A stretch of DNA of 64,000 nt from Planctomycetota bacterium (GCA_013112555.1 JABFGK010000001.1:1026581-1090580); one strand, 5' to 3'; shown: positions 320-51,345, numbered from the stretch's first letter. Numbers and translations: made by a program. Notes: generated from the letters alone by a model not told the origin.

Positions 320-525
320 GCCCGTCATCCGCGCGCCCCGCGGATGGCGGGGTATCACATCACCATACCGCCTCGCAAAAACCACGCCCCCGAGCCAAGC
401 CCACGGATTCCAATCCGTGGGGTAACTCCTTCTTATAACCTCCTCTCCCCCGCACCACCCCGCTCCCCCCCAAAGCCCCGTCATCCGCGCCCCCGCGCCA
501 AGCCCACGGATTCCAATCCGTGGGG
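320..525 (+). repeat. Intergenic hairpin-repeat cluster (module C, linker, module E, truncated C, E)
   Basis: C = CCCGTCATCCGCG..CGCGGATGGCGGGG at 320-354. E = CCCACGGATT-CC-AATCCGTGGG at 399-424 and 503-525. The same C-linker-E composite recurs at 2331-2440 and repeatedly in 4540-5300. Confidence 0.85.
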
Positions 526-555
526 TCTCCCCTCACTCCATATCACCCCTCCCCC

Positions 556-1374
556 TCACGTCGTCCGAATACTTCGGCGTACCAGAACCTCTCCGCCGGC
601 AACCCAGCATGCCACCGCTGCCCCAACCAGCACCGCCACATCCTCCCAGGGCAAAGAACCCCGGCGCAGAATCTCAATCGGCATGAAATACTTCAAAACA
701 CTGACATACCCCACCGGCGCAAACGTCGGCCAGATCTGCGCCACAAAGTTAATAAGAAACGAAAACACGAGCACCACAAACACAAACGCGATCGCACGCC
801 CACGCCGGTCCGAAACCGCAGATGCCAGAAAGGCCAATCCACCAATCGCCAGCCCGTTGCAATATAACATCAACAAAATCTGCAACTGCTCCTCGAGTCC
901 CAGCCCACCACCCTCCGGCGGGACAGACAGGCCGGTCACAATGTGCCCGACACCGCCGAGAACGACAATCACAAACACGCCGATCAACCATACACACGTC
1001 TCGCTGAAATACACCGACCGACGCGAAACCGGCAAACCGAGCAGCACATCAATGGTCCCACGATCAATCTCGCCCACAGGATACCGGGTACACACCTGCA
1101 CGCCGTGAGCCCACACCAATGCCAAAACCATCGGGTGCCCGAGAAGCGCTGCCTGTAACAACCGGCCCGTCATCGCATCATCAGACCCGATCCCGAAAAA
1201 GGCTGCGAGAATCGTCCGCACAAACGGAATCTGATTCCACATCTCCTCAAACCCACCCTGAACCTGCGGCACGATGGCCGTCAAGCCGGCCATGATAAAC
1301 AGCATCCCAACTCCGTACAGCAACGTCGCAACCCACGTCTCACGAACCGACTTAATAACCAGGCCACGCATCAT
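556..1374 (-). CDS. ABC-2 type transporter permease
   Basis: 272-aa ORF with multiple hydrophobic spans (VATLLYGVGMLFIMAGLTAIV, IAFVFVVLVFSFLINFVAQIW). ATG at 1374 overlaps the TGA of the upstream ATPase gene (ATGA), so the pair looks translationally coupled. Confidence 0.75.
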   Translation of the reverse strand: MMRGLVIKSVRETWVATLLYGVGMLFIMAGLTAIVPQVQGGFEEMWNQIPFVRTILAAFFGIGSDDAMTGRLLQAALLGHPMVLALVWAHGVQVCTRYPVGEIDRGTIDVLLGLPVSRRSVYFSETCVWLIGVFVIVVLGGVGHIVTGLSVPPEGGGLGLEEQLQILLMLYCNGLAIGGLAFLASAVSDRRGRAIAFVFVVLVFSFLINFVAQIWPTFAPVGYVSVLKYFMPIEILRRGSLPWEDVAVLVGAAVACWVAGGEVLVRRSIRTT

Positions 1375-2294
1375 GATGCCACCCCTCCATGCCCAGCCGC
1401 CTCAGATTCACCACGGTAAAACGATCGGAAAACCGTCTCCAGATCAGGCGGGCCAACGGTGAAATCCACGATACCTGCCTGCCCCGAAACCCACCGTGCC
1501 AACTCGGCTGCAGGACCCGTCATCTCGCATGTCCAACGATGGTGCCCGTGCTCAATCACATTCAAGAATGACGGCACAGCATCGGCATCCAACGGGCCTT
1601 CACTCCCAAACAGCAGCACCACCTGCCGCCGGGCCCTGGCCTGTAACTCGGACAACGGCTCATCAGCCACAATCCGACCGGCCCGAATAATCGCAATCCG
1701 ATCACACAGATGCTCAACCTCACTTAACGTATGACTCGAAAAGAAAACCGTCGTCCCATGGTGCTCAGCACACTCACGAACAATCGCAGCCAACTCAATC
1801 TGCATCAACGGGTCCAGCCCCGAAGTCGGCTCATCCAAAACTAATAATCGCGGCCGGGCGGCCAGCGCCAAAAGTAACCCCAGTTTCTGCCGCATCCCCC
1901 GTGACATCTTCCGGACCGATACATCCGGGTCCAGTGTGAGCCGTTCACACAGCCGATTGCCTGCCGCCTGCATGTCCGTGCCTCGAATCGCCCCGAGCAC
2001 ACGCACCCCGTTTCGTGCCGTCATCCACGGGTACAGCCGCAGGTCACCCGGCACATAGCCGACATCACGCTTGATCACATGGCTCGCGCCCCAGCAGTCT
2101 CGATCAAACACGCATGCAGTCCCCCCCTGTGCCTTCAGAAAACCGAGCAGGATCCGAATCGTCGTCGTCTTGCCTGCACCGTTCGGCCCAAGAAACCCAA
2201 ACACGCACCCCGACTCCACACACAGATCAACACCCGCAACACCGACCCGCGTGCCATACGAATGATGCAACTTCTCTGCTCGAATCACGGCCAT
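1371..2294 (-). CDS. ABC transporter ATP-binding protein
   Basis: Walker A GPNGAGKTT, signature-like MSRGMRQKLGL, Walker B LLVLDEPTSGLD, H-loop SSHTL. The ORF track starts at 2330, but ATG 2294 (MAVIRAEKL) follows a GGAGTG RBS. Confidence 0.9.
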   Translation of the reverse strand: MAVIRAEKLHHSYGTRVGVAGVDLCVESGCVFGFLGPNGAGKTTTIRILLGFLKAQGGTACVFDRDCWGASHVIKRDVGYVPGDLRLYPWMTARNGVRVLGAIRGTDMQAAGNRLCERLTLDPDVSVRKMSRGMRQKLGLLLALAARPRLLVLDEPTSGLDPLMQIELAAIVRECAEHHGTTVFFSSHTLSEVEHLCDRIAIIRAGRIVADEPLSELQARARRQVVLLFGSEGPLDADAVPSFLNVIEHGHHRWTCEMTGPAAELARWVSGQAGIVDFTVGPPDLETVFRSFYRGESEAAGHGGVAS

Positions 2295-2330
2295 TGGTTC
2301 ACTCCAATACGCTCTCCCCCACACCCCCAA

Positions 2331-2527
2331 CGCCCCGTCATCCGCGCCCCTCGCACGGGGGGGGGCGGGGTATCACAACACCACACCGCCTCAAATCAAC
2401 CATCCCCCCGTGCAAGCCCACGGATTCCAATCCGTAGGGTAACTCCCTCATATCCCCTCCTCTCCCCCCGCACCCCTCTCTCCCCGAACGCCCCGTCATC
2501 CGCGCGCCCCGTGGATGGTGGGGTATC
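2331..2527 (+). repeat. Intergenic hairpin-repeat cluster (degenerate C, E variant, C variant)
   Basis: CCCCGTCATCCGCGCCCC... at 2331-2373; CCCACGGATTCCAATCCGTAGGG at 2417-2439; CCCCGTCATCCGCGCGCCCCGTGGATGGTGGGG at 2481-2527. Confidence 0.8.
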
Positions 2528-2653
2528 CTACGCCCTCCCCGTGCATCACTCCCCACACACCCACCCCCCTGGCCCGGTATCGCAACCGAAGCGCTCCTCA
2601 CCCGATATACTCCCTCCCATTTACACCCTCAACACAGGGATGGAGCTCGTCCC

Positions 2654-4516
2654 ATGCACCTCCGACACATAATCGTCACACTTACCCTGACGACACTCCT
2701 CACAACAGCCTGCACATCAGGTCAGCAACATCAACAGGTCAATCTCGAAATCACCGCCGATCCGCCGTTGCAATTCTCACTCGATTCACTCCCGGAGGCA
2801 TTCGATCGACTCCGTGCTTGGCGACAGCTGCGCGTTACCGCGCCGGCCATCATCACGCTCTTTCCCGGCCGCTACACACTCACCGATCCACTTGTCCTCA
2901 ATCCATCACTCATCGGCGATGGCCTGACCATCAGGAAGTACTACAACGCCGAACCTGACTCCGTCATCCTCACCGGCGGCAGACCAATCGAAAACCTCTC
3001 ACTCCATCACGCAACCGGCACCTGGCAAACCACTATCCCTGACGTTGCCAACGGAGACTGGTGGTTCGAAGAACTCTTTGCCGACCTCACACCACGTACC
3101 CGTGCCCGTCACCCCAATACCGGATATGCCCGCGTCGTCTCAGCCGGCCCCGACAACCGAACGTCCTTCACCTTCAATCCCGACGAAATCCCAGCAGCGC
3201 ACATCGACACCATCACCAACACCGAAGTCGTCTTCTTCCACGACTGGTCCACTTCACGAATGACCATTGCCGATATTAATACCGACACCAACACGATCAC
3301 ACTCGCCAACCCGATCGGCTGCAAAGCCCCGCACTATGCCATCACCAACTTCGAAAAACATCCGCGATTCTACATCGAAGGTAGCACAGCACTTGTCGAC
3401 ACACCCGGCGAATGGGAACTCGACCGCACCACCGGCCACTTTGTCTACAAACCGCTGCCCGGCGAGACATTCGATAACACCAACCTGATAGCCCCGGTCG
3501 CCCCCTCGCTTATTAACATCATCGGGATCCACGGCTCACCGGCAACCAATGTCACACTCGACGGCCTCACCTTTGCCCACTCCAACTGGCCGATTCCCTC
3601 CTATGGCTACGCCGAGGGGCAGGCAGCCTTCTACGAGCAACGCGATAAACAAGGAAGCGACGGCACCCGCGACCCCGTCCCCGCAGCCATCCACCTCGAA
3701 TGGGCCGACAACTGCACCATCTCCAACTGCACCGTCTCATCCGTCGGCGGGACCGGCATCTGGGTAGGACCGGGCTGTAACGACAACACCATCTCAGGTA
3801 CCACGGTCCGACACGCCGGCGCCAACGGCATCATGGTCGGCGAACCAATGGGCCGCCTCGTCAACGGCAAACACTGGTGGCAGGAAGCCCCACAACAGGC
3901 TGCCACAGGCAACACGGTCAAAAACTGCCTCGTCGAATCCTGTGGCCGACGCTTCTTCGGTGCCGTCGGCATCTGGGTCGGCCTGGCGCAACAGACCCAG
4001 GTAGCCAATTGCGAAGTCCGCGACTTGCCCTACACAGGCATCTCCGTCGGCTGGCGCTGGGACGAAACACCGACACCCTGCCAAGCAAACATCATCGAGT
4101 CAAACCACATCCACCACGTCATGCTAAGCCTCTCCGACGGCGGCGGAATCTACACACTCGGCAAACAACCCGGCACCGTCCTCCGAAACAACGCGATCCA
4201 CGACATCGTCCGCAACGCCGGCCGAGCACCCTCCAACGGCATCTTCTTCGATCAGGGCTCCACCGATCTACTGATCGAAGGCAACTTCTTCTGGAACATC
4301 GATACCACGCCGCTCCGCTGGCACTGGACATACCAGAACGTCGTCCGCAACAACACCTTCGTCATACCAGAGGGGCAGCAGTTCGCCTATTACAACCGTG
4401 CCAAGGGCCAGGACATTACCTACGAGGATAACGCAATCACTGCACCTGCAACCTGGGATCCAACCGACCCCGACAACCCCGCAGCCGCCATCATCCACCA
4501 CGCCGGCCCACAATAA
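2654..4516 (+). CDS. Secreted right-handed parallel beta-helix repeat protein (possible lipoprotein; glycan-active fold)
   Basis: 620-aa ORF with signal peptide MHLRHIIVTLTLTTLLTTAC (Cys20, imperfect lipobox). Successive beta-helix turns: NCTISNCTVSSVGGTGIWVG, NNTISGTTVRHAGANGIMVG, VKNCLVESCG..GAVGIWVG, VANCEVRDLPYTGISVG, IIESNHIHHVM..DGGGIYTLG, LRNNAIHDIV...NGIFFD. Confidence 0.8.
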   Translation: MHLRHIIVTLTLTTLLTTACTSGQQHQQVNLEITADPPLQFSLDSLPEAFDRLRAWRQLRVTAPAIITLFPGRYTLTDPLVLNPSLIGDGLTIRKYYNAEPDSVILTGGRPIENLSLHHATGTWQTTIPDVANGDWWFEELFADLTPRTRARHPNTGYARVVSAGPDNRTSFTFNPDEIPAAHIDTITNTEVVFFHDWSTSRMTIADINTDTNTITLANPIGCKAPHYAITNFEKHPRFYIEGSTALVDTPGEWELDRTTGHFVYKPLPGETFDNTNLIAPVAPSLINIIGIHGSPATNVTLDGLTFAHSNWPIPSYGYAEGQAAFYEQRDKQGSDGTRDPVPAAIHLEWADNCTISNCTVSSVGGTGIWVGPGCNDNTISGTTVRHAGANGIMVGEPMGRLVNGKHWWQEAPQQAATGNTVKNCLVESCGRRFFGAVGIWVGLAQQTQVANCEVRDLPYTGISVGWRWDETPTPCQANIIESNHIHHVMLSLSDGGGIYTLGKQPGTVLRNNAIHDIVRNAGRAPSNGIFFDQGSTDLLIEGNFFWNIDTTPLRWHWTYQNVVRNNTFVIPEGQQFAYYNRAKGQDITYEDNAITAPATWDPTDPDNPAAAIIHHAGPQ

Positions 4517-4539
4517 ATCAACCTCACCCCCTCCTCATT

Positions 4540-5300
4540 TCCGTCATTCCCGCGCACGCGGGAATCCATCTTCTCTCCCCCGTAAAGCCCCGTCATCCGC
4601 GCCCCGCGGATGGCGGGGTATATCACAACACAACACCACACCGCCTCGCAAAAACCACACCCCCGCGCAAGCCCACGGATTCCAATCCGTGGGGTATTAC
4701 CCTCTCCCCCTGCACACCATCCCTTTATCCGTCATTCCCGCGCACGCGGGAATCCATCTTCTCTCCCCCGTAAAGCCCCGTCATCCGCGCCCCGCGGATG
4801 GCGGGGTATCTCACAACACCACACCGCCTCGCAAAAACCACACCCCCGCGCAAGCCCACGGATTCCAATCCGTGGGGTATTACCCTCTCCCCCTGCACAC
4901 CATCCCTTTATCCGTCATTCCCGCGCACGCGGGAATCCATCTTCTCTCCCCCGTAAAGCCCCGTCATCCGCGCCCCGCGGATGGCGGGGTAAATCACAAC
5001 ACAACACCATACCGCCTCGCAAAAACCACACCCCCGCGCAAGCCCACGGATTCCAATCCGTGGGGTCTCTTCTTCCCCCTCACCTCATCACCCCGCACCC
5101 CGCTCCCCCGTAAGGCCCCGTCATCCGCGCCCCGCGGATGGCGGGGTATCTCACAACACCACACCGCCTCGCAAAAACCACACCCCCGCGCAAGCCCACG
5201 GATTCCAATCCGTGGTGTCTCTTCTTCCCCCTCACCTCATCACCCCGCACCCCGCTCCCCGTAAAGCCCCGTCATCCGCGCCCCCGCGGATGGCGGGGTA
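4540..5300 (+). repeat. Tandem array of composite hairpin repeats (three full ~183-188-bp units D-C-linker-E, then two shorter units lacking D)
   Basis: Unit starts TCCGTCATTCCCGCGCACGCGGGAATCC at 4540, 4728 and 4911 (periods 188 and 183). Each unit holds D (ATTCCC-N8-GGGAAT), C (14-bp stem), a conserved 45-nt linker CACAACACCACACCGCCTCGCAAAAACCACACCCCCGCGCAA, and E. Units from 5069 replace D with TCTCTTCTTCCCCCTCACCTCATCACCCCGCACCCCGCTCCCC. Confidence 0.9.
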
Positions 5301-6498
5301 AATCCCACCACCTCCCCTCAACCCCTCCCCCCCACCTCCAAAAATACTCCTCCCCATCAACCCGCTGCCGACACAGGCCTTACACACTCACGCGAAACAA
5401 TATCCAAACAAAAACCAAACACCCCTCTTGACAGCCGGCTGCCGGGCTGTACATTGATGAACAACCCAACGCATCAGCACATCCAACAATCAAAGGAAGG
5501 AAAGGAGACGCACGACCCGAACCGACAAAGCAAAAACAAAAACAACAACAACCACGTAAAAAAGCATACCAACCATCGTCAGCCCTGCTGACAATGGCAC
5601 GAAAGAACGGACGGCATGGCCCGGCGCTGTGGAGTGGCCGGGAACCAGTGTGCTGAGAAGTCCTCGCGAGCCAGTAAATGTGTATGTGTGTGCGTATGTC
5701 TATACGTTCGTCTGTATCCTGTGTACACCCGTACACATCCGTGGATACACCTGCATACCCATACACAAACGGCACGCGATCTCTTTCTCAGGCACAAACG
5801 CTCTTGCAACTGGCAATCATTGCAGGACGGTCCGGAGTGCGTGCCGTGGATCCCGGGTTGAGAGTGATGGTCAGGAAAGAGACGGTCTGGATCGATTGTG
5901 CACCGTCTGTGCCTGTTGCGGGAGCATCGGAGATGACCTTCCACTCCGTGCGGGTCGTACCCTCAGCAAGCACAGGAAATGTCGACCACCGGGCTGCATG
6001 CCAGGGTGCACCGCGCATGGAGCTGTTCTAATGTATGTGATGGTTGCAACGTCTGATTCACCGATCAATCAGGCACGGGCCGAACGGCAAACATCGTGCG
6101 GAACAAAACGCACCTGTGCGCGCACAGGACCCTGCCGCTCGTCACCCACCGCTGATCGAAACGTCGAATCAGGTACACACGCAATCAGCCACGTGCATGC
6201 CCGGAAGCGATCGACGGCGTGACGTCTGCATCCGACATCGCCTGACATACATCACATTTCCTTGTGAGTGTCCACACGCACCTCGACTGAAAAACACGTG
6301 TCATGTGCACATGCATGTGCCCGCAATCTGCCACGGGAGCGTTCAAAAAAGGGTTCCAGTCGGACAAGTGAATGGTGCCCAGTCACACCGTCTCCCAACC
6401 GGCTCGTACCATGCCACACCTTCCCAAACCCGGGTGGGCCTGCCCGTCCTTCTTCCGGTTGCTTCCCCCTGGTTGATGCTGCATGCAACCACACCCCC

Positions 6499-6585
6499 GC
6501 GCCAAGCCCACGGATTCCAATCCGTGGGGTCTCTTCTTCCCCCTCACCCCATCACCCCGCGCACCGCGGATGGCGGGGGCGGGGA
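6499..6585 (+). repeat. Hairpin repeats (E plus C-like) upstream of the metal ATPase
   Basis: CCCACGGATTCCAATCCGTGGGG at 6507-6529; CCCCGCGCACCGCGGATGGCGGGGG at 6555-6580. Confidence 0.75.
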
Positions 6586-6655
6586 AGGCAGGGGCCCCAC
6601 GCAGCAAACACCACAATCAGGTGACGACCGGAAAGGAGAAGCAGGGGAGGATCAC

Positions 6656-9030
6656 ATGACACGGCTACAATCGCGCATGGAGAAAACGGTCTCCCGCCAT
6701 GAGCAACAGACACAATCGGCATCGGCCGAACCGCTGTCCCTGCAGCCTGCGCCCTCCCCTCCACCCACATCACCCGATGCTGGCCAAGACGTCAATCCGG
6801 CTGCTGCCGAGTCCTGCCAACACAGATGCCTCGGGCGATGCCTCATCATCCCCATCGAGGGAATGCAGTCGCGCCGCTGCGAACGCATCATCAACCGAAT
6901 GCTCAAGACTCGACACAAAATCACCGGCTGGGCCTCCTATGCCGCCGGGGTCGTGCGCATCGAAAGCACCAACGTCATCCCTCCGCTGGCCGAACTGGCA
7001 GACACACTCGCAAAACGTGGCTACCGCCTCCTCTATCAGGATGCCTGGCCCTGCGGACACGATGACCCGACCCAACCAACCGCCCCGTGCCATGATCGTG
7101 TCGCCACAAAGCAGAAACCGGGCCTCATCAACCGACTCCTCCCGGCCTCGATCAGCGCCGCCGGCGCGCCCCTGGCCACCGTCCTCGTCGGCGGGCTGCT
7201 GCTGGCAATCGGCTTCGTCCTCCGCCTGACCGGCCAACCGATGTGGGCATGGATTCCCCCGCTGGCAATCGCAGCCGTACTCACCAGCCTGCAGACATTC
7301 CCCTCTGCCGTCCGATCACTCCTGAACGTCACCCTCGATGTTGATGTGCTGATGTTCGTCGCTGCAGCCGGTGCCACCTGGCTCGGCCATGCCGAGGAAG
7401 GCGTCTTCCTCCTGTTCCTCTTCGGACTCGGGACCGCCGGCGAGCACATGGCCCTCGGTCGCGCACGCCATGCCATCGAAGCACTGCGCGATGTCGCGCC
7501 CGAAAACGCTCGCCTCATCGATGACGACGGCAACGAGCGCATGATCCCGGCCGCAAACGTGCGCATCGACGATCAACTCCTCGTCCTCCCATTCGAACGC
7601 TTTCCCGCAGACGGTGCCGTCATCGCAGGCCGCTCCGCCGTCGACCAGGCAGCCATCACCGGCGAGTCCATCCCCGTCGAAAAGGATGTCGGCGACATCG
7701 TGTTTGCCGGCAGCATCAATGGTGATTCCCAGATCCTCTTCCGCGCCACCAGGCCGGCCGGTGATTCCACCCTCAGCCGACTCATTCGGCTCGTCGAAGT
7801 GGCTGAAACCGAAAAAAGCCCGGCCCAGCAACTCACCGATCGCGTCGAGCGCTGGTACGTTCCCACAGTACTGGCACTCACCATTGCCGTCATCGTCATC
7901 CCGCCGCTTGCCTGGAACGAATCCTGGAGTGAGTGGTTCTATCGCGCGATGGCATTCCTCACCGCTGCCTCCCCCTGTGCCATTGCCATCGGCGGGCCTG
8001 CCGCCGTCTTGTGTGGCATCGCACGCTCGGCACGGATCGGCGTGTTAATAAAGGGTGGGGGCCCGCTCGAAACACTCGGTCGCGTCCGGGCCGTCTGCTT
8101 TGATAAAACCGGCACCCTCACAGCCGGCAAGCCGCGCGTCACGAATATCGTCCCACTTACCGAAACCGTGACCCCCGACCAGGCTCTCGCATGGGCAGCC
8201 TCGATCGAAGCAGAAACCACCCACCCGCTGGCCGCAGCCATCGTCACAGCTGCCCGGGATCGGAATCTAACAATCCCCGATGCCCGTGACGTCAGGCAAA
8301 TTACCGGCATGGGTGCCGAGGGGTATATTAACGATGATGAGATAACCGTCGGGCGCCTCACCGAGCAACTGAGCGCACGCATGACAGATGCACAGGCACA
8401 GGAGATTGCCGACATTGCAGCCCAGGGGCGCACCATCGTCTGCCTGACACGGAACGGGGAGCCGCTGGCCGTGTTCGGCATTGCCGATGAACCGCGCCCC
8501 GAAGCAAAAGAAACGGTGGCCGAACTTCGACGCCAGGGGATGACCCACGTGTCGATGCTCACCGGCGACCGTCAGGCCGTTGCCGAAGCGATCGCTGCCC
8601 GGCTCGGGATCGATCGGGTCTATGCCGACCTCATGCCCGAAGACAAACTGCGCGCCATCGAGGAACTGAGTAACGAACATGAGACGGCCATGGTCGGCGA
8701 CGGCGTCAATGACGCACCCGCACTGGCCCGTGCTGATGTCGGGATCGCAGTGGGGGAGCCGGCGCCGACGTCGCCATGGAGACTGCCGATGTCGTTCTAA
8801 TGGGGCAGACGATCGAGCGCCTGCCTGATGCAATCGCCATCTCCCGCCTGACACGAAGTATTACATTCCAGAACCTCGTGATTGCGCTGGGCGTAATCGC
8901 CGTCGTGGCCCCGATGGCCGTCACCGGCCACGCCTCACTCGGCATCGCCGTCCTGCTGCACGAAGGCTCGACCGTCGTCGTCGTCCTTAATGCCCTGCGC
9001 ATCCTTCGCTGGGGCCGAAAACGCAAGTAG
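6656..9030 (+). pseudogene. P1B-type heavy-metal translocating ATPase (SPC/HEGST signature, P1B-4-like), reading frame broken once near the 3' end
   Basis: Degenerate HMA-like N-domain (CLIIPIEGMQSRRCERIINRM), TGES (AITGESIPVEK), SPC (LTAASPCAIAIG), DKTGT (CFDKTGTLT), GDGVNDAP. The frame breaks after ...ADVGIAVG at the G5 run 8752-8756. Adding one G gives ...GIAVGGAGADVAMETADVVLM..., which continues in ORF 8776..9030 (…LLHEGSTVVVVLNALR). Start taken at ATG 6656 behind GAAAGGAG; the 6044 start in the ORF track reads through repeat DNA. Confidence 0.85.
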
Positions 9031-9076
9031 GGCCACATGGTCGAAGGACGTATGATCAAACGTTACCTCCTGCAAG

Positions 9077-9465
9077 CCGGACAAGCCGCGTCCCGCGGAT
9101 TGTCCGGGTCTCCCCACTCCCGTAGCCCCCGGCTCTGCCGGGGGGATGATGCGCAAGCATCATGCCATGCCTCACCTCCCACAAGCAGGGCAAGACATGC
9201 CCCGCGGATGGCGGGGTCTCCTTTACCTTCACCCCCTCCTTTTCTCCGTCATTCCCGCGCACGCGGGAATCCAGCCTCTCTCCTCCCTCGCCCGCCAGCG
9301 CACGAACGTAGCCGGCGGCTTCAGCCGCCGGAACAGGCACACGCCGCGAGCGCACGCACCGCCCGGAGGGCGGACGAAGTGAAACACAGAACATGTACCC
9401 ACAACGGGGCACATGCAATGTGCCCCTACCCTCCGTCAATCCCGCGCTCGCGGGAATCCAGCCGG
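9077..9465 (+). repeat. Dense mosaic of hairpin repeats (modules A, P, B, C, D, F, G, H, D-variant)
   Basis: A CCGGACAA..TTGTCCGG 9077-9108; P CCCCGGC-TCT-GCCGGGG; B ATGATGC-GCAA-GCATCAT; C-half ~9200-9217; D 9246-9275; F CCGGCGGC-TTCA-GCCGCCGG; G CCGCCC-GGA-GGGCGG; H GGGGCACAT-GCA-ATGTGCCCC; D-variant CAATCCCGCGCTCGCGGGAATCC ~9437-9460. Confidence 0.85.
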
Positions 9466-9512
9466 GTAGGTCAGGAGGAGGTCATCCGAGTCCTGACATC
9501 AGTGGCTGACGG

Positions 9513-10022
9513 ATGGTCCTTGATATTAATGTGAATCTCACAATAAAGATAATCCGTGTCACCGCTGCCGTCATCTTCGTGATGACGTTTATCACGTCGA
9601 ACTACACTTCCAACAGCGTGTACAAATGGGCGAGCCGTCCAATCGGAGGGATCCGGCAGGTCGAACTGCACGTCGGTGACGGCGAGATCGACATCCTGTG
9701 GACCAGGGCGCGTTCGGCCAATCCGAATGCGTGGTACGTCACACCGGCCCGCCTTACCGTGCATTTTGTGCATCACCGGGTCAGGGGAATCAGGAAGCCG
9801 GTCTTCCGGTTGTCCCACCCGGGCTGGACGCTGACCCTCCCCTTCTGGTTGATCATTCTCGTCAGCGGGGCAGCCGCGTTTGCACTCAGCATCAGTGATC
9901 TGCGACGGCACCTTCGTAGCGCGCAGGGCAAGTGCCCACGGTGCGGCTACGACCTGCGCGGCAACCGGGATGATGAGAGCGGCTGTCCGGAGTGCGGGTA
10001 TGGGAGAGAGAAGGATGAGTAG
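9513..10022 (+). CDS. Hypothetical membrane protein with C-terminal zinc-ribbon (CPRCGYDLRG...CPECG)
   Basis: 169-aa ORF. One clear TM (LTLPFWLIILVSGAAAFALSI) is followed by CxxC-x15-CxxC. The start is uncertain: ATG 9513 has a weak RBS, and ATG 9582 is an alternative. Confidence 0.6.
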   Translation: MVLDINVNLTIKIIRVTAAVIFVMTFITSNYTSNSVYKWASRPIGGIRQVELHVGDGEIDILWTRARSANPNAWYVTPARLTVHFVHHRVRGIRKPVFRLSHPGWTLTLPFWLIILVSGAAAFALSISDLRRHLRSAQGKCPRCGYDLRGNRDDESGCPECGYGREKDE

Positions 10023-10108
10023 CCGGGCAGGTCAGGACGAGGTCCTCAGAGCCCTGATAGGATCTACTGCCGAATCTGTATACGTAGTTGCACAGTGCCC
10101 GCGTTCCG

Positions 10109-11080
10109 CTACTTGTATGAACTTGCAACGGTGGATAAATCGCATTTGTCGATGCTTTCACTGTGAAGCGGGCGGTGCCACTCACATCGCGTGACGCCAA
10201 CAGTTGTATTCCAGGGTGTCTCAATTTCACTAAGAGGAACAGGCATATAAAACGCCTCCTCGCTCAGAGAAAAACCATGCATCAGGCGAAGTCTGCTTAT
10301 TACGTTATTCAGAGACCATGATGCAAGTTGTAGCTTCAATACCGTCGCCTCTGCACTCCAGTTTAGTGACACTTGCCTTAGCGCTACGTGAGGACGCCGC
10401 GGTGACGGGAGCTTGCCATCGAATGTGTCTACAGTGTAAAACGTAGAACCATGTGCACTTCCTCCCAGTATTCTCATGTCCTCCGCTGCTGCAGGTACCC
10501 CTGGAACGGTTTCAGGCCCGAAAGAGAAGGTAAAACCACCAGCGCCAAGCCTGTACCCGTGCTTGATACTGTTATATTCGGCGCGGAAGTCCTTGCTCAC
10601 GTACTCGGCTGCTAATCGACGCCAGAGCAACGAGAAAGCGTCTACAAGTCCGTCTGGTGCATTTGAAAGATCGGCATGAACATACGCAGACACGTTCTCC
10701 CATGATGACTTCTCTAGACCGACGCGATTGAGTATGTGCTTGCCGTTGCTTATCGAAGCAACTAGTGCGAGCAAATCCGCATTGCGGTACAGCTGTAGCC
10801 ATCCCAGTGGGTAGCTGGGTGCCTGTAGTAACGCCCCAAGCAAGGCAAACAGAGCTTCCAGACATTGATAATACGACACTCTGACCGCTATTGAGGCATA
10901 ACGAGATCTGTCTGTTGTGATCTCTGGGTCAAGTAGAGTGGCGATGAATGAGAAGTACTCAGCATCTATTCTAGCAAGGTAGTTCTTCGCCTGGTCTGCA
11001 AGATTCCAGCCATGAACGCAATATGGTGTATCTACAACAAGGAAGCAGTAGTGCGGCGCTTTTGTCTGTTGAGTGCTCAT
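10109..11080 (-). CDS. Hypothetical protein, orphan, in a low-GC patch
   Basis: 323-aa ATG-initiated ORF. It is the only long ORF in ~10.02-11.4 kb, where composition is visibly AT-richer than the flanks, with many A/T-ending codons. I recognise no motif with confidence. Confidence 0.6.
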   Translation of the reverse strand: MSTQQTKAPHYCFLVVDTPYCVHGWNLADQAKNYLARIDAEYFSFIATLLDPEITTDRSRYASIAVRVSYYQCLEALFALLGALLQAPSYPLGWLQLYRNADLLALVASISNGKHILNRVGLEKSSWENVSAYVHADLSNAPDGLVDAFSLLWRRLAAEYVSKDFRAEYNSIKHGYRLGAGGFTFSFGPETVPGVPAAAEDMRILGGSAHGSTFYTVDTFDGKLPSPRRPHVALRQVSLNWSAEATVLKLQLASWSLNNVISRLRLMHGFSLSEEAFYMPVPLSEIETPWNTTVGVTRCEWHRPLHSESIDKCDLSTVASSYK

Positions 11081-11757
11081 TCTGAATGTGCCAACTGTAG
11101 GGTATTAAGAGGGAGAGCGTTATTATACAAACAAACGCGGCTGAGATCGCTATATGGGAACCAGTAGTCGGCAGGTTCGTCTATCCGCTAGCAAGGCGAA
11201 TGTCAACAAGTCTGGGTCGATATTCTCGTACCGCTATAAGCCTATTGCCATAGTATATGTCAGGCATCTGTTAGGTCAAGAGAAAGGGACCAGGTAATAC
11301 GAGAACTTGCCCCGTAGTTTGTGTCCTCCTGCGCCCCTCGGGGGCGTTGGCACGAACGACGCGACGGAGGAGTCGTGTCATTTGGCACCTGTTGAGGACT
11401 CGCCCCGGCTCTGTCAGGGCTTGCGTTCTGACCTACACCTCTGATTCACAACCGACGCGCGGGATCGTCTAGTCGATTCTGTTGTATCACCCTGGATGCC
11501 CGCGTTCGCGAGCATGACGAGCGAGGTAATGGTGTATGACTTGTCCCTATTCAGGCAGTTACGCGCCCGGATGTGGTCCCTGGATCTTCGGCCCTCGGGA
11601 TCGGTGTGCGCAAACCTCGGGGCGGTGGAGCCCCTATAGTGTGCAGGCAGGCGCGAGCCTGCACCGGGCCGCTGCGGGGGATGGATCACATCGGATGTCG
11701 GGGCGGCGACCTGTCAGAATATATACGTGAATTTCCAGATATCCGGAGGTACAGGAT

Positions 11758-12066
11758 ATGATTACTGTTGGTATGAACTACAATGTCATCCCGGGCAAAC
11801 AGGGGGAGTTTGAAGACAAGTTTCGTGGTGTGCTGTCGGCTCTTCGAGAGGCCGACGGGCATGTTGAGTCGAAGATGTTTCGCGATATCGACGATGAGTG
11901 TGCCTACCTGATCGTCAGCGAATGGGGCGAGCAGGACAAATTCATGGGGTTCATTCGGAGTGATGCGTTCAAAGCCGTGACCAACTGGGGCAAGGACCAG
12001 ATCCTGGCCGGGCGCCCGCAGCACACGATTTACAAACATCCCGATCAGGGCGCGCCACAGCACTGA
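11758..12066 (+). CDS. Antibiotic-biosynthesis-monooxygenase (ABM) domain protein
   Basis: 102 aa, with GGAGG 8 nt upstream of the ATG. The pattern MITVGMNYNVIPGKQGEFEDKF...YLIVSEWGEQDKFMGFIRSDAFKAV is typical of the ferredoxin-like ABM fold. Confidence 0.75.
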   Translation: MITVGMNYNVIPGKQGEFEDKFRGVLSALREADGHVESKMFRDIDDECAYLIVSEWGEQDKFMGFIRSDAFKAVTNWGKDQILAGRPQHTIYKHPDQGAPQH

Positions 12067-12084
12067 TCGTCCGAGTACAGTCCT

Positions 12085-12852
12085 ATGTTCGGCAGACGAA
12101 AGCGTCGACGCGAGCAGATCCGCTCTCAGCCGTTCCCCCCGGAGTGGTGGCACTGGATCGTTGTTAACGTTCCATATGTGAATACACTCAATGAGGCAGA
12201 CCAGCGCGAACTCAAAGGCCACATTCGTGTCCTGCTCGATGAAAAACGCTTTGAGGGCTGTGGCGGGCTGGAGATCACTAACGAAATCCGTGTCACGATC
12301 GCCGCCCAGGCTGCCTTGTTGTTATTACATCGTGAGACCGAGTACTACCCGACACTCAAGTCGATCCTCGTCTACCCGACGGCGTTTAAGTCGCATCTGA
12401 CGGTTCCTCGGCCGGATGGCACGGTCATCGAAGGTGAAGTCGCACGGCGAGGCGAGTCGTGGTTCCGCGGGTCTCTCGTATTGTCCTGGCATGATGTGAA
12501 GCGCGGGGCCGACCACCCCGGCGACGGCCGCAACGTCGTCCTGCACGAGTTTGCCCATCAACTCGACGGCGAATCCGGTGCCATGGACGGGGCACCGGCA
12601 TTGCCCAGCAGCGGATGTTACCGTGCCTGGGCTGAAGTGCTCGGTGATGAGTATCGTGACCTTCTCAGGTCCGTCCATCAACGGCATCATCACTTGCTCG
12701 ACCGCTATGCTGCGACGAACCCGCCCGAGTTCTTTGCCGTTGCTACCGAGTTTTTCTTCGAGCAGCCGTATATGATGCGCCTGCATCATCCTGACTTGTA
12801 TGAGCAACTGTCCGAGTTCTATCAGCAGGACCCGGCTGCGAATCTCGGTTGA
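12085..12852 (+). CDS. mtfA: MtfA-like zinc metallopeptidase (M90 family)
   Basis: 255 aa; HEFAHQLD zinc motif, ...NPPEFFAVATEFFFEQP... and the N-terminal W..W....P region are characteristic of MtfA/DUF980-type peptidases. Confidence 0.8.
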   Translation: MFGRRKRRREQIRSQPFPPEWWHWIVVNVPYVNTLNEADQRELKGHIRVLLDEKRFEGCGGLEITNEIRVTIAAQAALLLLHRETEYYPTLKSILVYPTAFKSHLTVPRPDGTVIEGEVARRGESWFRGSLVLSWHDVKRGADHPGDGRNVVLHEFAHQLDGESGAMDGAPALPSSGCYRAWAEVLGDEYRDLLRSVHQRHHHLLDRYAATNPPEFFAVATEFFFEQPYMMRLHHPDLYEQLSEFYQQDPAANLG

Positions 12853-12954
12853 TACGCCTTATCTGTGCGGTGGCCTGTGATGACGTTTCAATACCCGAAG
12901 CACACTCTGAGCAATGAGAAGTGGGAAACACGCGATCAGCGGCGCATAAGGAAT

Positions 12955-13218
12955 ATGAAAGCGACTGCGCGCTGGAACGGCAGGGTGCTGCTGTACGGAT
13001 TGGCCCCCATCATGTTGATCGCACCACTCGTTGGTCCAATGCCGAGCCGGTGGTGGGAGTGGGCAGGCTGTTGGGTGGTGGGGGTGTGTGTCGCTGGTGG
13101 AAGTGTCGCGCTGATCCGCTGGGGGAGGAATCCGTTTTATCGCTCTCCGGTCCTGAGCCGGCGCCCGGTAGAAGGCAGTGAAGATGACGAGGCAGAGGTC
13201 TGCAGTACGCACGAGTGA
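12955..13218 (+). CDS. Small hypothetical membrane protein
   Basis: Two hydrophobic spans (VLLYGLAPIMLIAPLVG, AGCWVVGVCVAGGSVALI). ATG 12955 follows TAAGGAA. The ORF track offers a GTG at 12865. Confidence 0.4.
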   Translation: MKATARWNGRVLLYGLAPIMLIAPLVGPMPSRWWEWAGCWVVGVCVAGGSVALIRWGRNPFYRSPVLSRRPVEGSEDDEAEVCSTHE

Positions 13219-18164: not shown

Positions 18165-18460
18165 TGTGTGGCACTTCGTCCGCCCTCCGGGCGGGGTGTG
18201 TTCGTGGAGCGTGCCCTGTCCGGCGGCTGACCTCCCCCAACCGCCGGCTACGGTCGTGCGCCCTGTCGGGCGAGGGAGGAGTGAAGATGGATTCCCGCGT
18301 TCGCGGGAATGACGGAGGAGTGAGGAAACATTGCATGATGCTTGCGCATCATTATCCTCCCGGCAGAGCCGGTGCGTATGGCACGAAGTGCCATGCAGCG
18401 ATCTCATCGTGATTTAGCGGCACGTTGTCCCGCCGCCCCCCGGCAGAGCCGGGGCGAACC
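18165..18460 (-). repeat. Hairpin-repeat mosaic, reverse-complement copy of the 9128-9400 composite (G, F, D, B, P) plus an extra P
   Basis: The reverse complement of 18165-18385 aligns module by module with 9128-9400 (see findings). GGATTCCCGCGTTCGCGGGAATGACGG at ~18288-18314; ATGATGCTTGCGCATCAT ~18336-18353; CCCGGCAGAGCCGG twice. Confidence 0.8.
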
Positions 18461-21098: not shown

Positions 21099-21161
21099 TG
21101 TGCGATCCGGCTGGGGGGCTGTACGCGCAGCCGGGAGCAATGGGCGTGATTTGAGAATGAC

Positions 21162-21198
21162 CCGGACAATCCGCGATGCGGCTTGTCCGGCTTTTTTT
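21162..21198 (+). terminator. Rho-independent terminator after the flotillin gene (A-family hairpin plus T-tract)
   Basis: CCGGACAA-tccgcgatgcggc-TTGTCCGG (21162-21190) followed by CTTTTTTTGT. Confidence 0.65.
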
Positions 21199-27404: not shown

Positions 27405-27414
27405 GGGGAGAGGA

Positions 27415-27690
27415 AGCGGAAGCGCTCCGCTGCGCGTCGCGGTTGATTGGCACTGGATTCCCGCGTGCGCGGGAATGACGAGGAGGGGGAGGGGGCACAC
27501 GGGTGGTTCTCGTCGCTGTCGCGACTCGTGCCAGCCGTGCCACCCGGGAGTGGGGAGACCCGGACAATCCGCGCGGGGCGCGCGGCTTGTCCGGCTTGTG
27601 TTTTGGAGGGGGCGGGGGGTGGGTGCACCAGGCATGATGCTTGCGCAGCATTCCCCCCCCGGCAGAGCCGGGGGCTACGGGTGTGGGGAA
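27415..27690 (-). repeat. Hairpin-repeat mosaic (R, D, Q, A, B, P modules, minus orientation)
   Basis: GGATTCCCGCGTGCGCGGGAATGACG 27454-27480; CCGGACAATCCGCGCGGGGCGCGCGGCTTGTCCGG 27560-27594; ATGATGCTTGCGCAGCAT; CCCGGCAGAGCCGGGGG. The same order recurs at 37960-38165 and 35460-35600. Confidence 0.85.
27560..27606 (+). terminator. Possible intrinsic terminator for the sigma-kinase operon (A-family hairpin plus T-rich tail)
   Basis: 16-bp stem with one mismatch, followed by CTTGTGTTTTGG, about 155 nt after the kinase stop. Confidence 0.4.
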
Positions 27691-27702
27691 TGAGGGGGAG
27701 GT

Positions 27703-28423: not shown

Positions 28424-28446
28424 AGGGTTGGAGTGTAGGAGGGGGG

Positions 28447-28640
28447 AGCGTTAGCCGCGAGGCGGGAGCCGAGCGCGGGGGAGACCCCACGGATTGGAAT
28501 CCGTGGGCTTGGCGATCCGGGAGAGGAGATGAGAAGAGAAGGTGGATTCCCGCGTGCGCGGGAATGACGGAGGGGGCGAGGAGAAGAGAGGATGGATTCC
28601 CGCGTGCGCGGGAATGACGGAAGGGGGTGGGAATGACGGA
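28447..28640 (-). repeat. Hairpin-repeat mosaic (I-E composite, two D copies)
   Basis: GTTAGCCGCGAGGCGGGAGCCGAGCGCGGGGGAGACCCCACGGATTGGAATCCGTGGGC (also at 30341 and 51163); GGATTCCCGCGTGCGCGGGAATGACGG at ~28544 and ~28594. Confidence 0.85.
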
Positions 28641-28785
28641 GGGGGTAGCCAGATGGGGGGGATGCCGCTATCCTTGCCCCCGATTTCTGCCCCGATTTCT
28701 GCCCTGGCCTCCGGTGGTCGATTCGGGGTAGGGTGTGGTGGTCTGCTGCGGCAGGCTCGGAGTCCAGTTTTTTGTCCACAATTGA

Positions 28786-30317: not shown

Positions 30318-30340
30318 GGATGGGGGTGATGGGGGGGGTG

Positions 30341-30420
30341 AGTGTTAGCCGCGAGGCGGGAGCCGAGCGCGGGAGGGAGACCCCACGGATTGGAATCCGT
30401 GGGCTTGGCGATCCGTGGGC
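30341..30420 (-). repeat. I-E composite hairpin repeat
   Basis: GTGAGTGTTAGCCGCGAGGCGGGAGCCGAGCGCGGGAGGGAGACCCCACGGATTGGAATCCGTGGGCTTGGCGATCCGTGGGC. Confidence 0.85.
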
Positions 30421-35263: not shown

Positions 35264-35600
35264 CCGCGGGGAGAGGGGGGCAAGAGTGCCAATCGGGAGA
35301 TTGGCGGTCCGGGGGTTGACAAAGCCGCCACCGGTGGTGGCGGTAGAGAGAAGAGAAGATGGATTCCCGCGTGAGCGGGAATGACGGGGGGGGGGAGGGC
35401 GTTTACCCCACGGATAGGAATCCGTGGGCTTGGGGGAGAGGGAGAGGGGGTGAAGGGGGGAAGAGACCCGGACAATGCGCGGGGCGCGGCTTGTCCGGCT
35501 TGTGGTTTTGGAGGGGGTGTGGGTGCACAAGGCATGATGCTTGCGCATCATTCTCTCCCCCCGGCGGAGCCGGGAGCTAATGGGAGCCGTGCCCCCCGGC
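35264..35600 (-). repeat. Hairpin-repeat mosaic (split palindrome, J, D, E-variant, A, B, P)
   Basis: GCCAATC-GGGA-GATTGGC 35288-35305; GCCGCCACC-GGT-GGTGGCGG 35324-35343; GGATTCCCGCGTGAGCGGGAATGACGG ~35362; CCCCACGGATAGGAATCCGTGGGC 35407-35429; A 35468-35498; ATGATGCTTGCGCATCAT. Confidence 0.85.
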
Positions 35601-37442: not shown

Positions 37443-37688
37443 TGCAATAAGAATGAATCTGTGGTTTCATTCGTACTGGGTCTGATAAGTGTCAGTCGGG
37501 ACGGAGCCGCTGAAGTGTGGGGCCGTGGGGCGCACATCGGCAGCGCTGGGCGCGTCTCCTTTAATTAGGTTAGAGGCCGGGGTGAGGGGCAGGTGGCGAT
37601 AGTTTGTTCGGAGGGAGTACCGGCGTTGAGGGGAGTTATTGGGACGTCGCCGATTTGTTTGGATTGTTTGCTGAGGTGATGGGGACGA

Positions 37689-38200
37689 GCGCCAATCGGG
37701 AGATTGGCGATCCGGGGGGTCACAAAGCCGCCACCGGTGGTGGCGGTAGAAGGGAAGAAGAGAAGATGGATCCCGGCCTGCGCCGGGATGACGGAAGGAG
37801 GGGATGGGGAGGGGAGAGAGGATGCGCTCCGCTCCGCGTCGCGGTAAATTGGGACTGGATTCCCGCGTGCGCGGGAATGACGGGGAGGGGAGGAGAGGAG
37901 AGGAGAGAAGATGGATCCCGGCCTGCGCCGGGATGACGGAGGGAGGGGAGGGGAATGAGGGGTGGGGTATAAGGAGGAGACACGGGTCGGCTTCGTCGCG
38001 TGCGCGACTCACCCGAGCTGTGCCACCCGGGATACCACCCGGGAGTGGGGAGGCCCGGACAATCCGCGCGGTGCGCGGCTTGTCCGGCATGTGGGAGGTG
38101 AGGCATGGCATGATGCTTGCGCATCATTCCCCCGGCTCCGCCGGGGGCTAACGGGAGTGGGGAATGAGAGGATGGATTCCCGCGCACGCGGGAATGACGG
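37689..38200 (-). repeat. Large hairpin-repeat mosaic between the two flagellin genes
   Basis: J pair 37691-37750; GGATCCCGGCCTGCGCCGGGATGACGGA at ~37767 and ~37913 (D-variant); R-D at ~37820-37885; Q-A-B-P at 37960-38160 (A 38055-38087); D 38172-38200. Confidence 0.85.
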
Positions 38201-38208
38201 AAGGAGGG

Positions 38209-38251
38209 GGGTGAACAAAGAAGCCCCCGGTGTGTGTGAGCACCGGGGGCT
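38209..38251 (-). terminator. Rho-independent terminator downstream of flagellin 2
   Basis: Minus strand GCCCCCGGTG-ctcacaca-CACCGGGGGC followed by TTCTTTGTTC. Confidence 0.7.
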
Positions 38252-49736: not shown

Positions 49737-49812
49737 ATTCGATGTCCTCGTCCCGGGGTCAGTGTGTGTGTCTCACCGTGCGTTCATTTGTGTGCATGCG
49801 GTCAGTGGTTCG

Positions 49813-50595
49813 TTACACGAAGCGCCCGAGTCTGTTAATAGCACTGTTCATTAATTCATCCTGATACCGGATCATCTGGGCGTTGGCAGAGACGGCTGCA
49901 GTGGTGCGGTTGAGTTCCATGAGTGATTGCATGGGATCGACGGCACTCGTTTCGAGCCAGCCCTGGGAGATGGAGCCGGAGGCAGGGAGTCGGCTGTTTT
50001 GTTCGGTGTTACCGAGTCGGAAGGTGTTGGCACCTTCTTTTTCGAAGGCTTGGAGATCGGCGATGGTGATGAGTTGAATGCGTGCGACGGTCGTATTGCC
50101 TTGCTTGACGCTGCCGTCGGATTCGATGCGGACGTCGCCGCGTGTCGGATCGACTTCGATGGGGCGATCGTTTTCATCGAGGACGCGCATGCCGCTGCCG
50201 GAGTGAACGAGCATGCCGTTGTTGTCGATGCTCATGGCTCCGTCTCGTGTGAATCGGAGTCTGGTCGAGTTGGCGGTGGCACCGGATGAGAGTGTGAAGA
50301 AGCCCTCGCCGCGGACGGCCAGGTCGAGGGGGTTGCCGGTTTGTCGGAGGGCCCCATCACGGAACAGGGTGACGGTGGGGTTCAGCAGGCTGCCGCCGCC
50401 GAGGTTTTCGAGCAGTCGATTCGGGTCGTCGAGGCTGAGGTTATCTTCGAGGCGTTCGGGTTCGCGCTGGCGGATGATGGGCATGTCGGGTTTGAAGCCG
50501 ACGGTGTTGACGTTGGCAATGTTATTGGAGACCACATCCTGCATGTGGCGGTTGACGAGGAGTCCGGATGCGGAGAGGTACAGGCCGTAGTTCAT
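49813..50595 (-). CDS. flgF: Flagellar proximal rod protein FlgF
   Basis: MNYGLYLSASGLLVNRHMQDVVSNNIANVNTVGFK ... GWLETSAVDPMQSLMELNRTTAAVSANAQMIRYQDELMN. Confidence 0.85.
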   Translation of the reverse strand: MNYGLYLSASGLLVNRHMQDVVSNNIANVNTVGFKPDMPIIRQREPERLEDNLSLDDPNRLLENLGGGSLLNPTVTLFRDGALRQTGNPLDLAVRGEGFFTLSSGATANSTRLRFTRDGAMSIDNNGMLVHSGSGMRVLDENDRPIEVDPTRGDVRIESDGSVKQGNTTVARIQLITIADLQAFEKEGANTFRLGNTEQNSRLPASGSISQGWLETSAVDPMQSLMELNRTTAAVSANAQMIRYQDELMNSAINRLGRFV

Positions 50596-50885
50596 GCTGC
50601 GTGCCCTCCTCCCGGGTCGTCCTGATCAGTGGTGTCGGCCGGACCGGAGAATGGCAGCGGGGCAATGCGGGTGGCGTCGAACTGTGGTTGTTCTTCGTTG
50701 GCCATCATCATGGTGTGGGCCTGGGCAGCGAGGGTGGCAAGTCGGACAACGAGTTTGCCGAGGTCATGGGGGTCGGTATCGCGGCGGAGGCGTGCCAGGA
50801 CCGGCGAGGGGGGCGACCTGTGCGTCCCGAGCATCGGCATACTGCTGCTGCTCGTGTTGTTGGCGCGCATGCAGATGTTTGTCAT
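50592..50885 (-). CDS. Small hypothetical protein translationally coupled to flgF
   Basis: 97-aa ATG ORF whose TGA overlaps the flgF ATG (ATGA). No recognisable motif, weak RBS. Confidence 0.35.
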   Translation of the reverse strand: MTNICMRANNTSSSSMPMLGTHRSPPSPVLARLRRDTDPHDLGKLVVRLATLAAQAHTMMMANEEQPQFDATRIAPLPFSGPADTTDQDDPGGGHAA

Positions 50886-51159
50886 CCTGAATTTTCAGTG
50901 ATGCAGCGCTCAACGATCTCAAATGACAAGCCTGATCGCGTCCATACGTCACAGCGGCACTCCTTGCCTGTGGCTCGGTTCTACAACGGTTGTCATGCAA
51001 TCGGCGGGCCGGGAATGGGGGGGGGTTGGAGTGGGGTGTGTAAGTGGTTGATGGTTGGCGAGTTAGGGGTGGTTATGGTAACGGGAGTGGTTCGGTGTTG
51101 GTGTGGGGATGAAGCGCAAGGATTGCCGGGCAGGGGGCGCAGGGGGTGGGGGAATGTGA

Positions 51160-51345
51160 GGGGTGAGTGTTAGCCGCGAGGGGGAGCCGGGGGCGGGGGA
51201 GACCCCACGGATTGGAATCCGTGGGCTTGGGGAGGGGTGGGGAGGAGCGACCCCACGGATTGGAATCCGTGGGCATGGTGAGTCGGGGAGTGGGGAGGAG
51301 CGACCCCACGGATGGGAATCCGTGGGCTTGGGGAGGGGCCGGGGG
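51160..51345 (-). repeat. Hairpin repeats: I-E composite followed by two further E copies
   Basis: CCCCACGGATTGGAATCCGTGGGC at 51203-51225 and 51251-51274; the variant ...GGATGGGAATCC... at 51304-51327. Confidence 0.85.

Follow-up and report, generated by a model that had tools for sequence, protein, structure and literature searches.

Repetitive extragenic palindromic (REP) elements are among the commonest non-coding elements of bacterial genomes, and both their spread and their role are still debated. Their super-families are defined by 5' GTAG and CGTC tags (PMC3733652), and most published REPs are organised as inverted dimers (PMC3733652, PMC3333891, PMC2817692). TnpA(REP) binds single-stranded DNA (ssDNA) of one strand only, namely the one with the tag and the mismatch-bearing hairpin (PMC3333891), and REP-associated tyrosine transposases (RAYTs) are normally specific for one REP family (PMC6006769). 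In the IS200/IS605 insertion sequences an orientation bias is known that places the active strand on the lagging-strand template and co-orients tnpA with the fork (PMC3971601, PMC3333891). Here we analyse a stretch of 64,000 nucleotides from a Planctomycetota bacterium (GCA_013112555.1, JABFGK010000001.1:1026581-1090580; the window hereafter), whose intergenic DNA holds several families of hairpin repeats, called modules A, B, C, D, D', E and P, that all reverse their orientation where the GC skew changes sign. Judged by their anatomy, the modules are REP-type elements, that is, short imperfect palindromes with a 5' tag in the intergenic DNA of one Phycisphaerae-like species. They can be placed in known REP super-families, as new members or variants whose near-strict replichore polarity is unusual, and do not constitute a categorically new system. 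To our knowledge, replichore polarity has not been reported for classical RAYT-associated REPs, nor has strict polarity of this kind been described for the REPINs (REP doublets forming hairpins) of E. coli or Pseudomonas.

Polarity of the repeats and its switch

Module sequences are read on the C-rich strand throughout. In a scan of the window, module E (CAAGCCCACGGATTCCAATCCGTGGGGT, at most one mismatch) was found eight times on the plus strand at 396-6530 and six times on the minus strand at 28484-51330. Module D (GTCATTCCCGCGCACGCGGGAATCC, at most two mismatches) gave five plus-strand copies at 4543-9459 and seven minus-strand copies at 18289-38198, and no match to either module is expected by chance at these limits. 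A previous sequence-only reading of the window had counted the same eight and six copies of E, at coordinates that mark the stem starts and lie 3-4 nt inside the present matches, and five copies of D on the left with at least seven on the right. Modules A, B and P behave in the same way, as that reading had also claimed, and a self-BLAST of the window extends the rule to all repeats. Among 195 repeat pairs, left-left pairs (47/47) and right-right pairs (53/53) are direct and left-right pairs (95/95) are inverted. These repeats occupy about 20 intergenic segments of the window, which together make up some 3.8 kb.

Sequence beyond the window was taken from the draft metagenome-assembled genome (MAG) GCA_016743455.1, which supplied 10 kb of flank on either side (L053 on the left, L056 on the right) and a distant locus on another contig (L062); the AtpD protein of the window is 100% identical to a 'Planctomycetes bacterium' MAG protein. 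The two flanks contain six further clusters, all of which obey the rule, and no wrong-orientation copy, even a decayed one, was detected at BLAST E <=1e-3 across the 84 kb formed by window and flanks. When the distant locus is included, around 60 module copies obey the polarity rule and one violates it. Counted by site, 20 intergenic sites obey it and one is mixed, so that the sign of the skew accounts for 20/21. Strict polarity, as originally proposed, holds inside the window, where all 195 pairs are consistent with it, but not genome-wide, since one E copy at L062:11900-11927 stands in the opposite orientation. Polarity is accordingly near-strict and not absolute. Copies from opposite arms can be 100% identical across 34-37 nt, and this identity, along with the lack of the repeats in the closest relatives, points to a recent spread. 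In two copies only the loop is inverted relative to the flanks, namely one D (38173-38200; GCAC for GTGC) and one P (38129-38147; TCC for AGA), as expected from intrastrand template switching inside the hairpin.

The switch itself can be placed with some precision. Left-type copies end with a variant D at 9433-9460, and a degenerate D at 11492-11521 (E ~1e-5), the sole significant match within 9.5-18.1 kb, already has the right-arm orientation; the switch must therefore lie within 9464-11491. The interval proposed earlier, between 11401 and 18171, has to be abandoned, given this degenerate D, and the weak P variant near 11401 that had been taken as the last plus-oriented copy is a match of 11 nt without significance (E ~0.3). 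In 2-kb windows the GC skew is -0.33 at the left end and rises to +0.2/+0.3 on the right, with a zero crossing near 9.6-10.8 kb, and the interval of the orientation switch coincides with this change of sign. The skew is of the replication type, as its sign at third codon positions (GC3 skew) is independent of the gene strand. On the plus strand it amounts to -0.43 for plus genes and -0.48 for minus genes in the left arm, and to +0.37 and +0.46, respectively, in the right arm. The repeat segments reach an absolute skew of 0.4-0.5, above that of the surrounding genome.

Strand asymmetry is unusually strong in the window and both flanks, with a GC skew of 0.2-0.33 in 2-kb windows, a GC3 skew of about 0.4-0.5 and an excess of T over A on the G-rich strand. 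The stretch at 9464-18164 (8.7 kb) departs from this pattern. Its GC3 skew is near zero, it contains only one decayed D, GC falls to about 0.50 in a core at 9.9-11.4 kb, and the part at 11.7-18 kb is without repeats. Two open reading frames (ORFs) in the switch zone, at 9513-10022 (+) and 10109-11080 (-), match no Pfam or NCBIfam family, and the other genes of the stretch encode an ABM monooxygenase, an M90 peptidase, an FHA protein, a SpoIIE-phosphatase, an ECF sigma factor and a beta-propeller protein. The whole stretch looks recently acquired or rearranged.

Replication versus transcription

Orientation tracks the strand asymmetry associated with replication and not the transcription of flanking genes. 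Genes lie on both strands in both arms, as shown by Pfam matches and the MAG annotation, with a flagellar cluster on the minus strand at 35.7-52.3 kb. In tandem gene contexts, the C-rich form that carries the tag is found in the sense of transcription at five or six sites (4524, 9065, 37687, 51158, L053:15699), and the G-rich form at two or three (30335, L053:19448 and probably L053:20733). The site at 30335 helps to separate replication from transcription because there it is the G-rich form that reads in the direction of transcription. Five divergent promoter regions likewise obey the arm rule. Moreover, canonical terminators of the genes precede the repeats (atpD, 30270-30308; flagellin 2, 38222-38251). 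No intrinsic terminator was called on the D, C, E, P or B hairpins, the modules are devoid of T-runs, and one weak plus-strand call, at 27576-27592, lies inside a copy of A.

If orientation simply followed the nearest upstream gene, the repeats being 3'-UTR structures or terminators, the flip would reflect the gene orientation of the arms. The five or six tandem contexts with the C-rich form in the sense of the upstream gene agree with this idea, as does the sole rule-breaking copy, the E of L062, which is in the sense of lepA. Against it stand the two or three tandem contexts of the opposite kind, the divergent promoter regions, the presence of genes on both strands in both arms and the separate canonical terminators. 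Since tandem sites occur in either sense and the genes have terminators of their own, transcription does not explain the orientation; the idea was ruled out on these grounds, and we regard it as very improbable. A link between orientation and the replication strand had been put forward in the sequence-only reading, along with a comparison of replication direction with flanking transcription as a way to check it. In that comparison the skew prevails, and replication-linked polarity can be considered well supported, with a high degree of confidence.

Anatomy of the modules and comparison with described systems

Module D reads CGTC / ATTCCCGC / GCAC / GCGGGAAT / CCA and folds as DNA into eight pairs with a 4-nt loop. 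D' (CGTC / ATCCCGGC / GCAG / GCCGGGAT / CCA) differs from it by two compensatory stem changes, which are suggestive of structural constraint. Module C contains CGTC / ATCCGCG / CCC / CGCGGAT within a longer stem. Every copy of D, D' and C reads CCGTCAT... on the C-rich strand, the CGTC tag being unpaired at the 5' foot of the hairpin. P consists of GTAG / CCCCCGGC / TCT / GCCGGGGG, and a second GTAG hairpin of CCGGCGGCT / TC / AGCCGCCGG. A GT[AG]G tag is present at the foot of P at 9120 and 27655 and of the second hairpin at 9307 and ~18.2 kb, and it is degenerate in four other P-like copies (GTTAG, ATTAG or absent). E and A share the foot CAAGCC...GGGTCTC and a conserved G.G mismatch in the stem, and B is a hairpin with a GCAA loop. 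The modules combine into mosaic units of 80-190 bp, always head-to-tail, with recurrent composites such as D-C-E (~183 nt, in tandem at 4540-5066), A-P-B (~125 nt), D plus GTAG hairpin (~150 nt) and E plus a conserved tail (~80 nt). Self-BLAST revealed no inverted repeat pair within either arm, and inverted neighbours occur just once, at L062, as an E next to a D of another family. The repeats are not known RNAs either, as no Rfam family at the gathering threshold and no tRNA was found among them.

The resemblance to CGTC-1 REPs, the Neisseria dRS3 type, is close (PMC3733652). All four motif features are present in D, namely the CGTC tag, the short unpaired CCA tail, a loop of 4 nt and an 8-bp stem opening with A-T and T-A pairs. 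D' keeps tag and tail despite its stem changes, and the elements are clustered as in Neisseria. Yet the published families form mostly head-to-head dimers with negligible head-to-tail arrangement (PMC3733652), whereas here all copies of an arm are head-to-tail and their orientation is tied to the skew. CGTC repeats in Planctomycetes are not reported in that study (PMC3733652). In a similar way, P and the CCGGCGGCT hairpin, whose GC-rich stems bear GTAG at the 5' foot, resemble the REPs, bacterial interspersed mosaic elements and REPINs associated with RAYTs, and like them are extragenic, multicopy and mosaic. The conserved stem mismatch of E and A also recalls the E. coli REPs, in which such a mismatch is needed for binding of the enzyme (PMC3333891). 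These systems differ from the present one in that no pairs of a REP with its inverse are seen here, and only one DNA strand consequently carries recognisable REPs; furthermore, no RAYT gene was found in the part of the genome that was searched. IS200/IS605 elements and their non-autonomous derivatives share a one-strand hairpin with a 5' guide or tag and a bias linked to the direction of replication, but the sign of the bias is opposite, and neither a transposase nor a target tetranucleotide nor distinct left and right ends could be recognised here.

The closest precedent for the arrangement is found in the GI and GIII arrays of Pseudomonas fluorescens SBW25, which are head-to-tail and lie forward on one side of the chromosome and reverse on the other (Bertels & Rainey 2011, PMC3116915). 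In SBW25, these are a few arrays amid a majority of inverted REPIN doublets, whereas every family, single copies included, follows the rule in the genome studied here. Finally, KOPS (FtsK-orienting polar sequences) and Chi also flip their orientation at the origin and have their G-rich form on the leading strand, but they are 8-mers spread across coding DNA and read by FtsK and RecBCD, in contrast to the intergenic hairpin mosaics of 25-190 nt described here.

Distribution beyond the window

The distant locus L062 has an overall skew of +0.09 and a GC3 skew of about +0.2, only about half of that in the window, and its repeat density is also lower. It contains one clear E, which is the violating copy, one E-like hairpin with four mismatches and one D that obeys the rule. 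Near the clear E, three adjacent plus-strand genes (7036-9894) show negative GC3 skew (-0.09 to -0.39) amid positive skew, which suggests that this spot beside lepA has recently undergone a local inversion or insertion. The repeats are missing from relatives with 91-92% AtpD identity (GC 41% and 54%) and 87% (GC 68%), and the skew of these relatives is weaker (0.04-0.09 overall); relatives at 91-92% AtpD identity span 41% to 60% GC. As for comparison with empty sites, two of the relatives (L059, L061) lack synteny, and a third (L185) is syntenic but AT-rich and repeat-free.

The families differ in their behaviour in other organisms. At least 120 metagenome contigs, of 48-73% GC, contain the exact D 27-mer CGTCATTCCCGCGCACGCGGGAATCCA, so that one REP sequence is conserved base for base among widely differing organisms. 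Its orientation in those contigs is unrelated to the local skew (34 against 29), a control of limited power because their skews are weak, and some copies (among metagenome loci L065-L144) form head-to-head pairs 20-70 nt apart. By contrast, E-like hairpins in other Phycisphaerae MAGs follow the local skew in 33 copies versus nine against it by our tally, and one locus has five co-oriented copies. The 22-nt core of E is multicopy in at least 15 other Planctomycetota or Phycisphaerae MAGs, where the differing flanks often extend the stem; it is also present singly in each of two Nocardia genomes and in one Lachnospiraceae MAG. The E 28-mer has no match in JGI metagenomes or viral contigs, and a six-frame peptide translation of the repeats, used to look for spurious ORFs at further loci, likewise gave no match. 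Because D is non-polar elsewhere while E-like hairpins are polar across several Phycisphaerae, polarity seems to belong to the lineage no less than to the element.

Possible origins of the polarity

The G-rich strand is generally the leading strand. The tags (GTAG, CGTC and the CAAGCC foot), the stabler hairpin cores and the pyrimidine-rich linkers are almost always on the C-rich strand, and it is because of this that all families flip where the skew flips. By the usual skew rule, the tag strand would have the sequence of the lagging strand and would thus be the leading-strand template, which makes the bias the reverse of that of IS200/IS605. The reading that we tentatively prefer, although it falls a little short of an even chance, is a strand-specific processing of REP-type elements as ssDNA at the fork, followed by retention in the protected orientation. 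The elements would be handled as single-stranded hairpins by a strand-specific process, most plausibly by a Y1 HUH enzyme of the RAYT or IS200 type. Excision or breakage would eliminate those copies whose recognised strand lies on the lagging-strand template, which is exposed as ssDNA, and copies with this strand on the protected template would persist. Strand-specific loss is favoured over strand-specific insertion on account of the reversed sign relative to IS200/IS605, which suggests that copies in the protected orientation survive preferentially, or that selection acts, more than it suggests simple insertion into the lagging-strand template.

Several points weigh against this proposal. No Y1/HUH or RAYT gene was found by Pfam, annotation and motif scan in ~106 kb (~4%) of the genome nor in the other loci examined, and a regular-expression scan for the HUH/Y1 motif, a crude test, gave no match in any sequence examined. 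For the window itself, this agrees with the previous claim that no hairpin-recognising enzyme is encoded, as Pfam scans of ~60 ORFs retrieved none and the sole transposase is a DDE enzyme of the IS481 type (33857-35126). No transposase is known for CGTC-type REPs (PMC3733652), and the three tag types share one polarity in spite of the one-family specificity of RAYTs. The bias has the opposite sign to that documented for IS200/IS605 (PMC3971601), a reversal to which the idea of strand-specific loss has been fitted ad hoc. Besides, assignment of the tag strand to the leading-strand template assumes the skew rule, and the switch is of origin type by the sign of the skew only, since no DnaA-box cluster was found there, nor repeated 8-mers, oriC or dnaA. 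No target-site signature, empty site or insertion border could be defined from the repeat flanks and the relatives, which lack the elements; the unit borders are mosaic. To these have to be added the E copy of L062, the sole clear violation among ~60 copies, and the lack of skew-linked polarity of the D 27-mer in other organisms, where skews are weak.

The main rival is an orientation-dependent selection at the level of the host, in which insertion would occur either way and only one orientation relative to the fork would be tolerated or useful. For example, the purine- or G-rich strand might have to lead, the C-rich units of hairpin and pyrimidine tract might act as a polar block or Rho-loading signal for head-on transcription, or they might be an architecture signal like KOPS or Chi. 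The polarity is common to all families irrespective of tag type, D is polar here and not in other organisms while E-like hairpins are polar across several Phycisphaerae, the repeat segments are more skewed than their surroundings, and 5/8 tandem-context sites lie behind lagging-strand genes. The three tag types with one polarity and the non-polar D elsewhere point to a host-level process at least as much as to a single element-specific enzyme. Nevertheless, selection should contend with the lack of wrong-orientation copies, even decayed ones, at BLAST E <=1e-3 in the 84 kb, where young copies are identical across arms, and the modules are not gene terminators. Folding offers little help, too. 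Taken alone, the hairpin cores gain 0-3 kcal/mol in stability on the C-rich strand, but for entire repeat segments it is the G-rich strand that gives the better fold, and random control segments of the window show this preference too. A small asymmetry that reverses in this manner leaves selection against stable hairpins on the lagging-strand template unsupported. Altogether, host-level selection is possible but on the unlikely side. A broader version, in which a host-level filter or function tied to the replication strand acts on all hairpin repeats, keeps their recognisable strand on the leading-strand template and so creates a polar origin-to-terminus layer of intergenic signals, seems rather doubtful.

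A classical insertion into the lagging-strand template by a RAYT/IS200-type enzyme, as in IS608 or ISDra2, would produce the polarity by insertion bias only, and this is how the sequence-only reading had understood it. The anatomy of tagged hairpins (PMC3733652, PMC3333891) and the documented replication-linked bias of IS200/IS605 (PMC3971601) speak for it, and the part of that reading which related the repeats to hairpin transposases gains some weight from the GTAG and CGTC tags. It is at odds, however, with the position of the tag on the C-rich strand, which the usual skew rule makes the template of the leading strand, with the failure to find an enzyme in ~106 kb and with the missing inverted dimers, and we consider it improbable. 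A passive origin by local tandem duplication or gene conversion within an arm, followed by symmetric inversions around the origin, would account for the tandem arrays and for an array length that differs between two assemblies, but it deserves hardly any credence in view of at least 20 separate intergenic sites over 84 kb interleaved with unrelated genes, a mosaic composition that varies from site to site and the copies on another contig.

Map of the repeat sites

Coordinates of repeat clusters and of the polarity switch in the window
Feature	Position	Strand	Context and remarks
C, E, C-like, E cluster	305..534	+	Between convergent genes; tag (C-rich) form on +
C-like, E, C cluster	2323..2527	+	Divergent region: ABC ATPase (-) / beta-helix gene (+)
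Tandem array: ~183-nt D-C-E units, then ~152-nt C-E units	4524..5311	+	Downstream of beta-helix gene (+), tag form in the gene's sense
Single E unit and C-like remnant	6486..6567	+	Upstream of P-type ATPase, likely start ~6656
A-P-B composite (A with CAAGCC...GGGTCTC foot, GTAG-tagged P, B with GCAA loop)	9065..9194	+	
D (CGTC-tagged), GTAG-tagged CCGGCGGCT hairpin, GGGGCACAT hairpin, variant D (9433-9460)	9226..9463	+	Variant D is the last left-type copy
Polarity switch zone	9464..11491	.	No significant repeat copy; skew zero crossing; GC down to ~0.50
Degenerate D, first right-type copy	11492..11521	-	E ~1e-5
D, GTAG hairpin, B, P-like cluster	18165..18372	-	Divergent region; tag form on - from here rightward
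Single A hairpin	21159..21193	-	Between convergent genes
D and A-B-P composite	27405..27694	-	Between kinase gene (+) and HAD gene (-)
E unit and two tandem D units (50-nt period)	28439..28647	-	Divergent region HAD (-) / atpD (+)
E unit	30335..30415	-	Between atpD (+) and thiamine-binding-protein gene (+), downstream of atpD terminator 30270-30308
D, E, A, B, P-like, perfect palindrome cluster	35284..35586	-	Between IS481 transposase (+) and flagellin 1 (-)
D' x2, D x2 (one flipped loop), A-B-P	37687..38211	-	Between two flagellin genes (both -), downstream of flagellin-2 terminator 38222-38251
Three tandem E units (53-nt period)	51158..51338	-	Between lipA (-) and flgF (-)

The D-C-E array measures 788 bp in the window (4524-5311) and 605 bp in the draft MAG (L053, 6247-6851). 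The difference corresponds to one ~183-bp unit and may be due either to assembly collapse or to a real change in copy number. Between this array and the next E unit there is a non-repetitive, apparently non-coding segment of about 1.2 kb (5312-6485), whose ORFs have no Pfam or NCBIfam match, and the start of the P-type ATPase that follows is probably near 6656, the MAG annotation having it at 6044. In the right arm, the ORF of a HAD-type hydrolase (21966-23156) contains a 48-nt tandem repeat in its 5' part (22049-22242; four copies, 92% matches). The atpD gene, which encodes the F1-ATPase beta subunit (28798-30237), is solitary between the genes for a HAD hydrolase and a thiamine-binding protein, outside any atp operon, and this arrangement is also kept in a relative of 41% GC. 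The coding sequence of the IS481 transposase is divided between two overlapping ORFs (33857-34459 and 34407-35126), as the result of either a frameshift or programmed frameshifting, and the draft MAG contig stops just before it.

Significance

A genome whose REP families all point one way relative to replication represents a clean natural experiment that separates the two DNA strands, and here a bias reversed relative to IS200/IS605 is paired with an unusually strong GC skew. Should a host-level filter be at work, its candidate roles would be to limit head-on transcription or to mark replichore polarity, and the repeats would then be more than the footprint of one transposase. If the pattern is confirmed genome-wide, the CGTC REPs would be extended to Planctomycetota, and the origin of REP polarity, be it strand-specific insertion, strand-specific loss or a polar function, would become testable.

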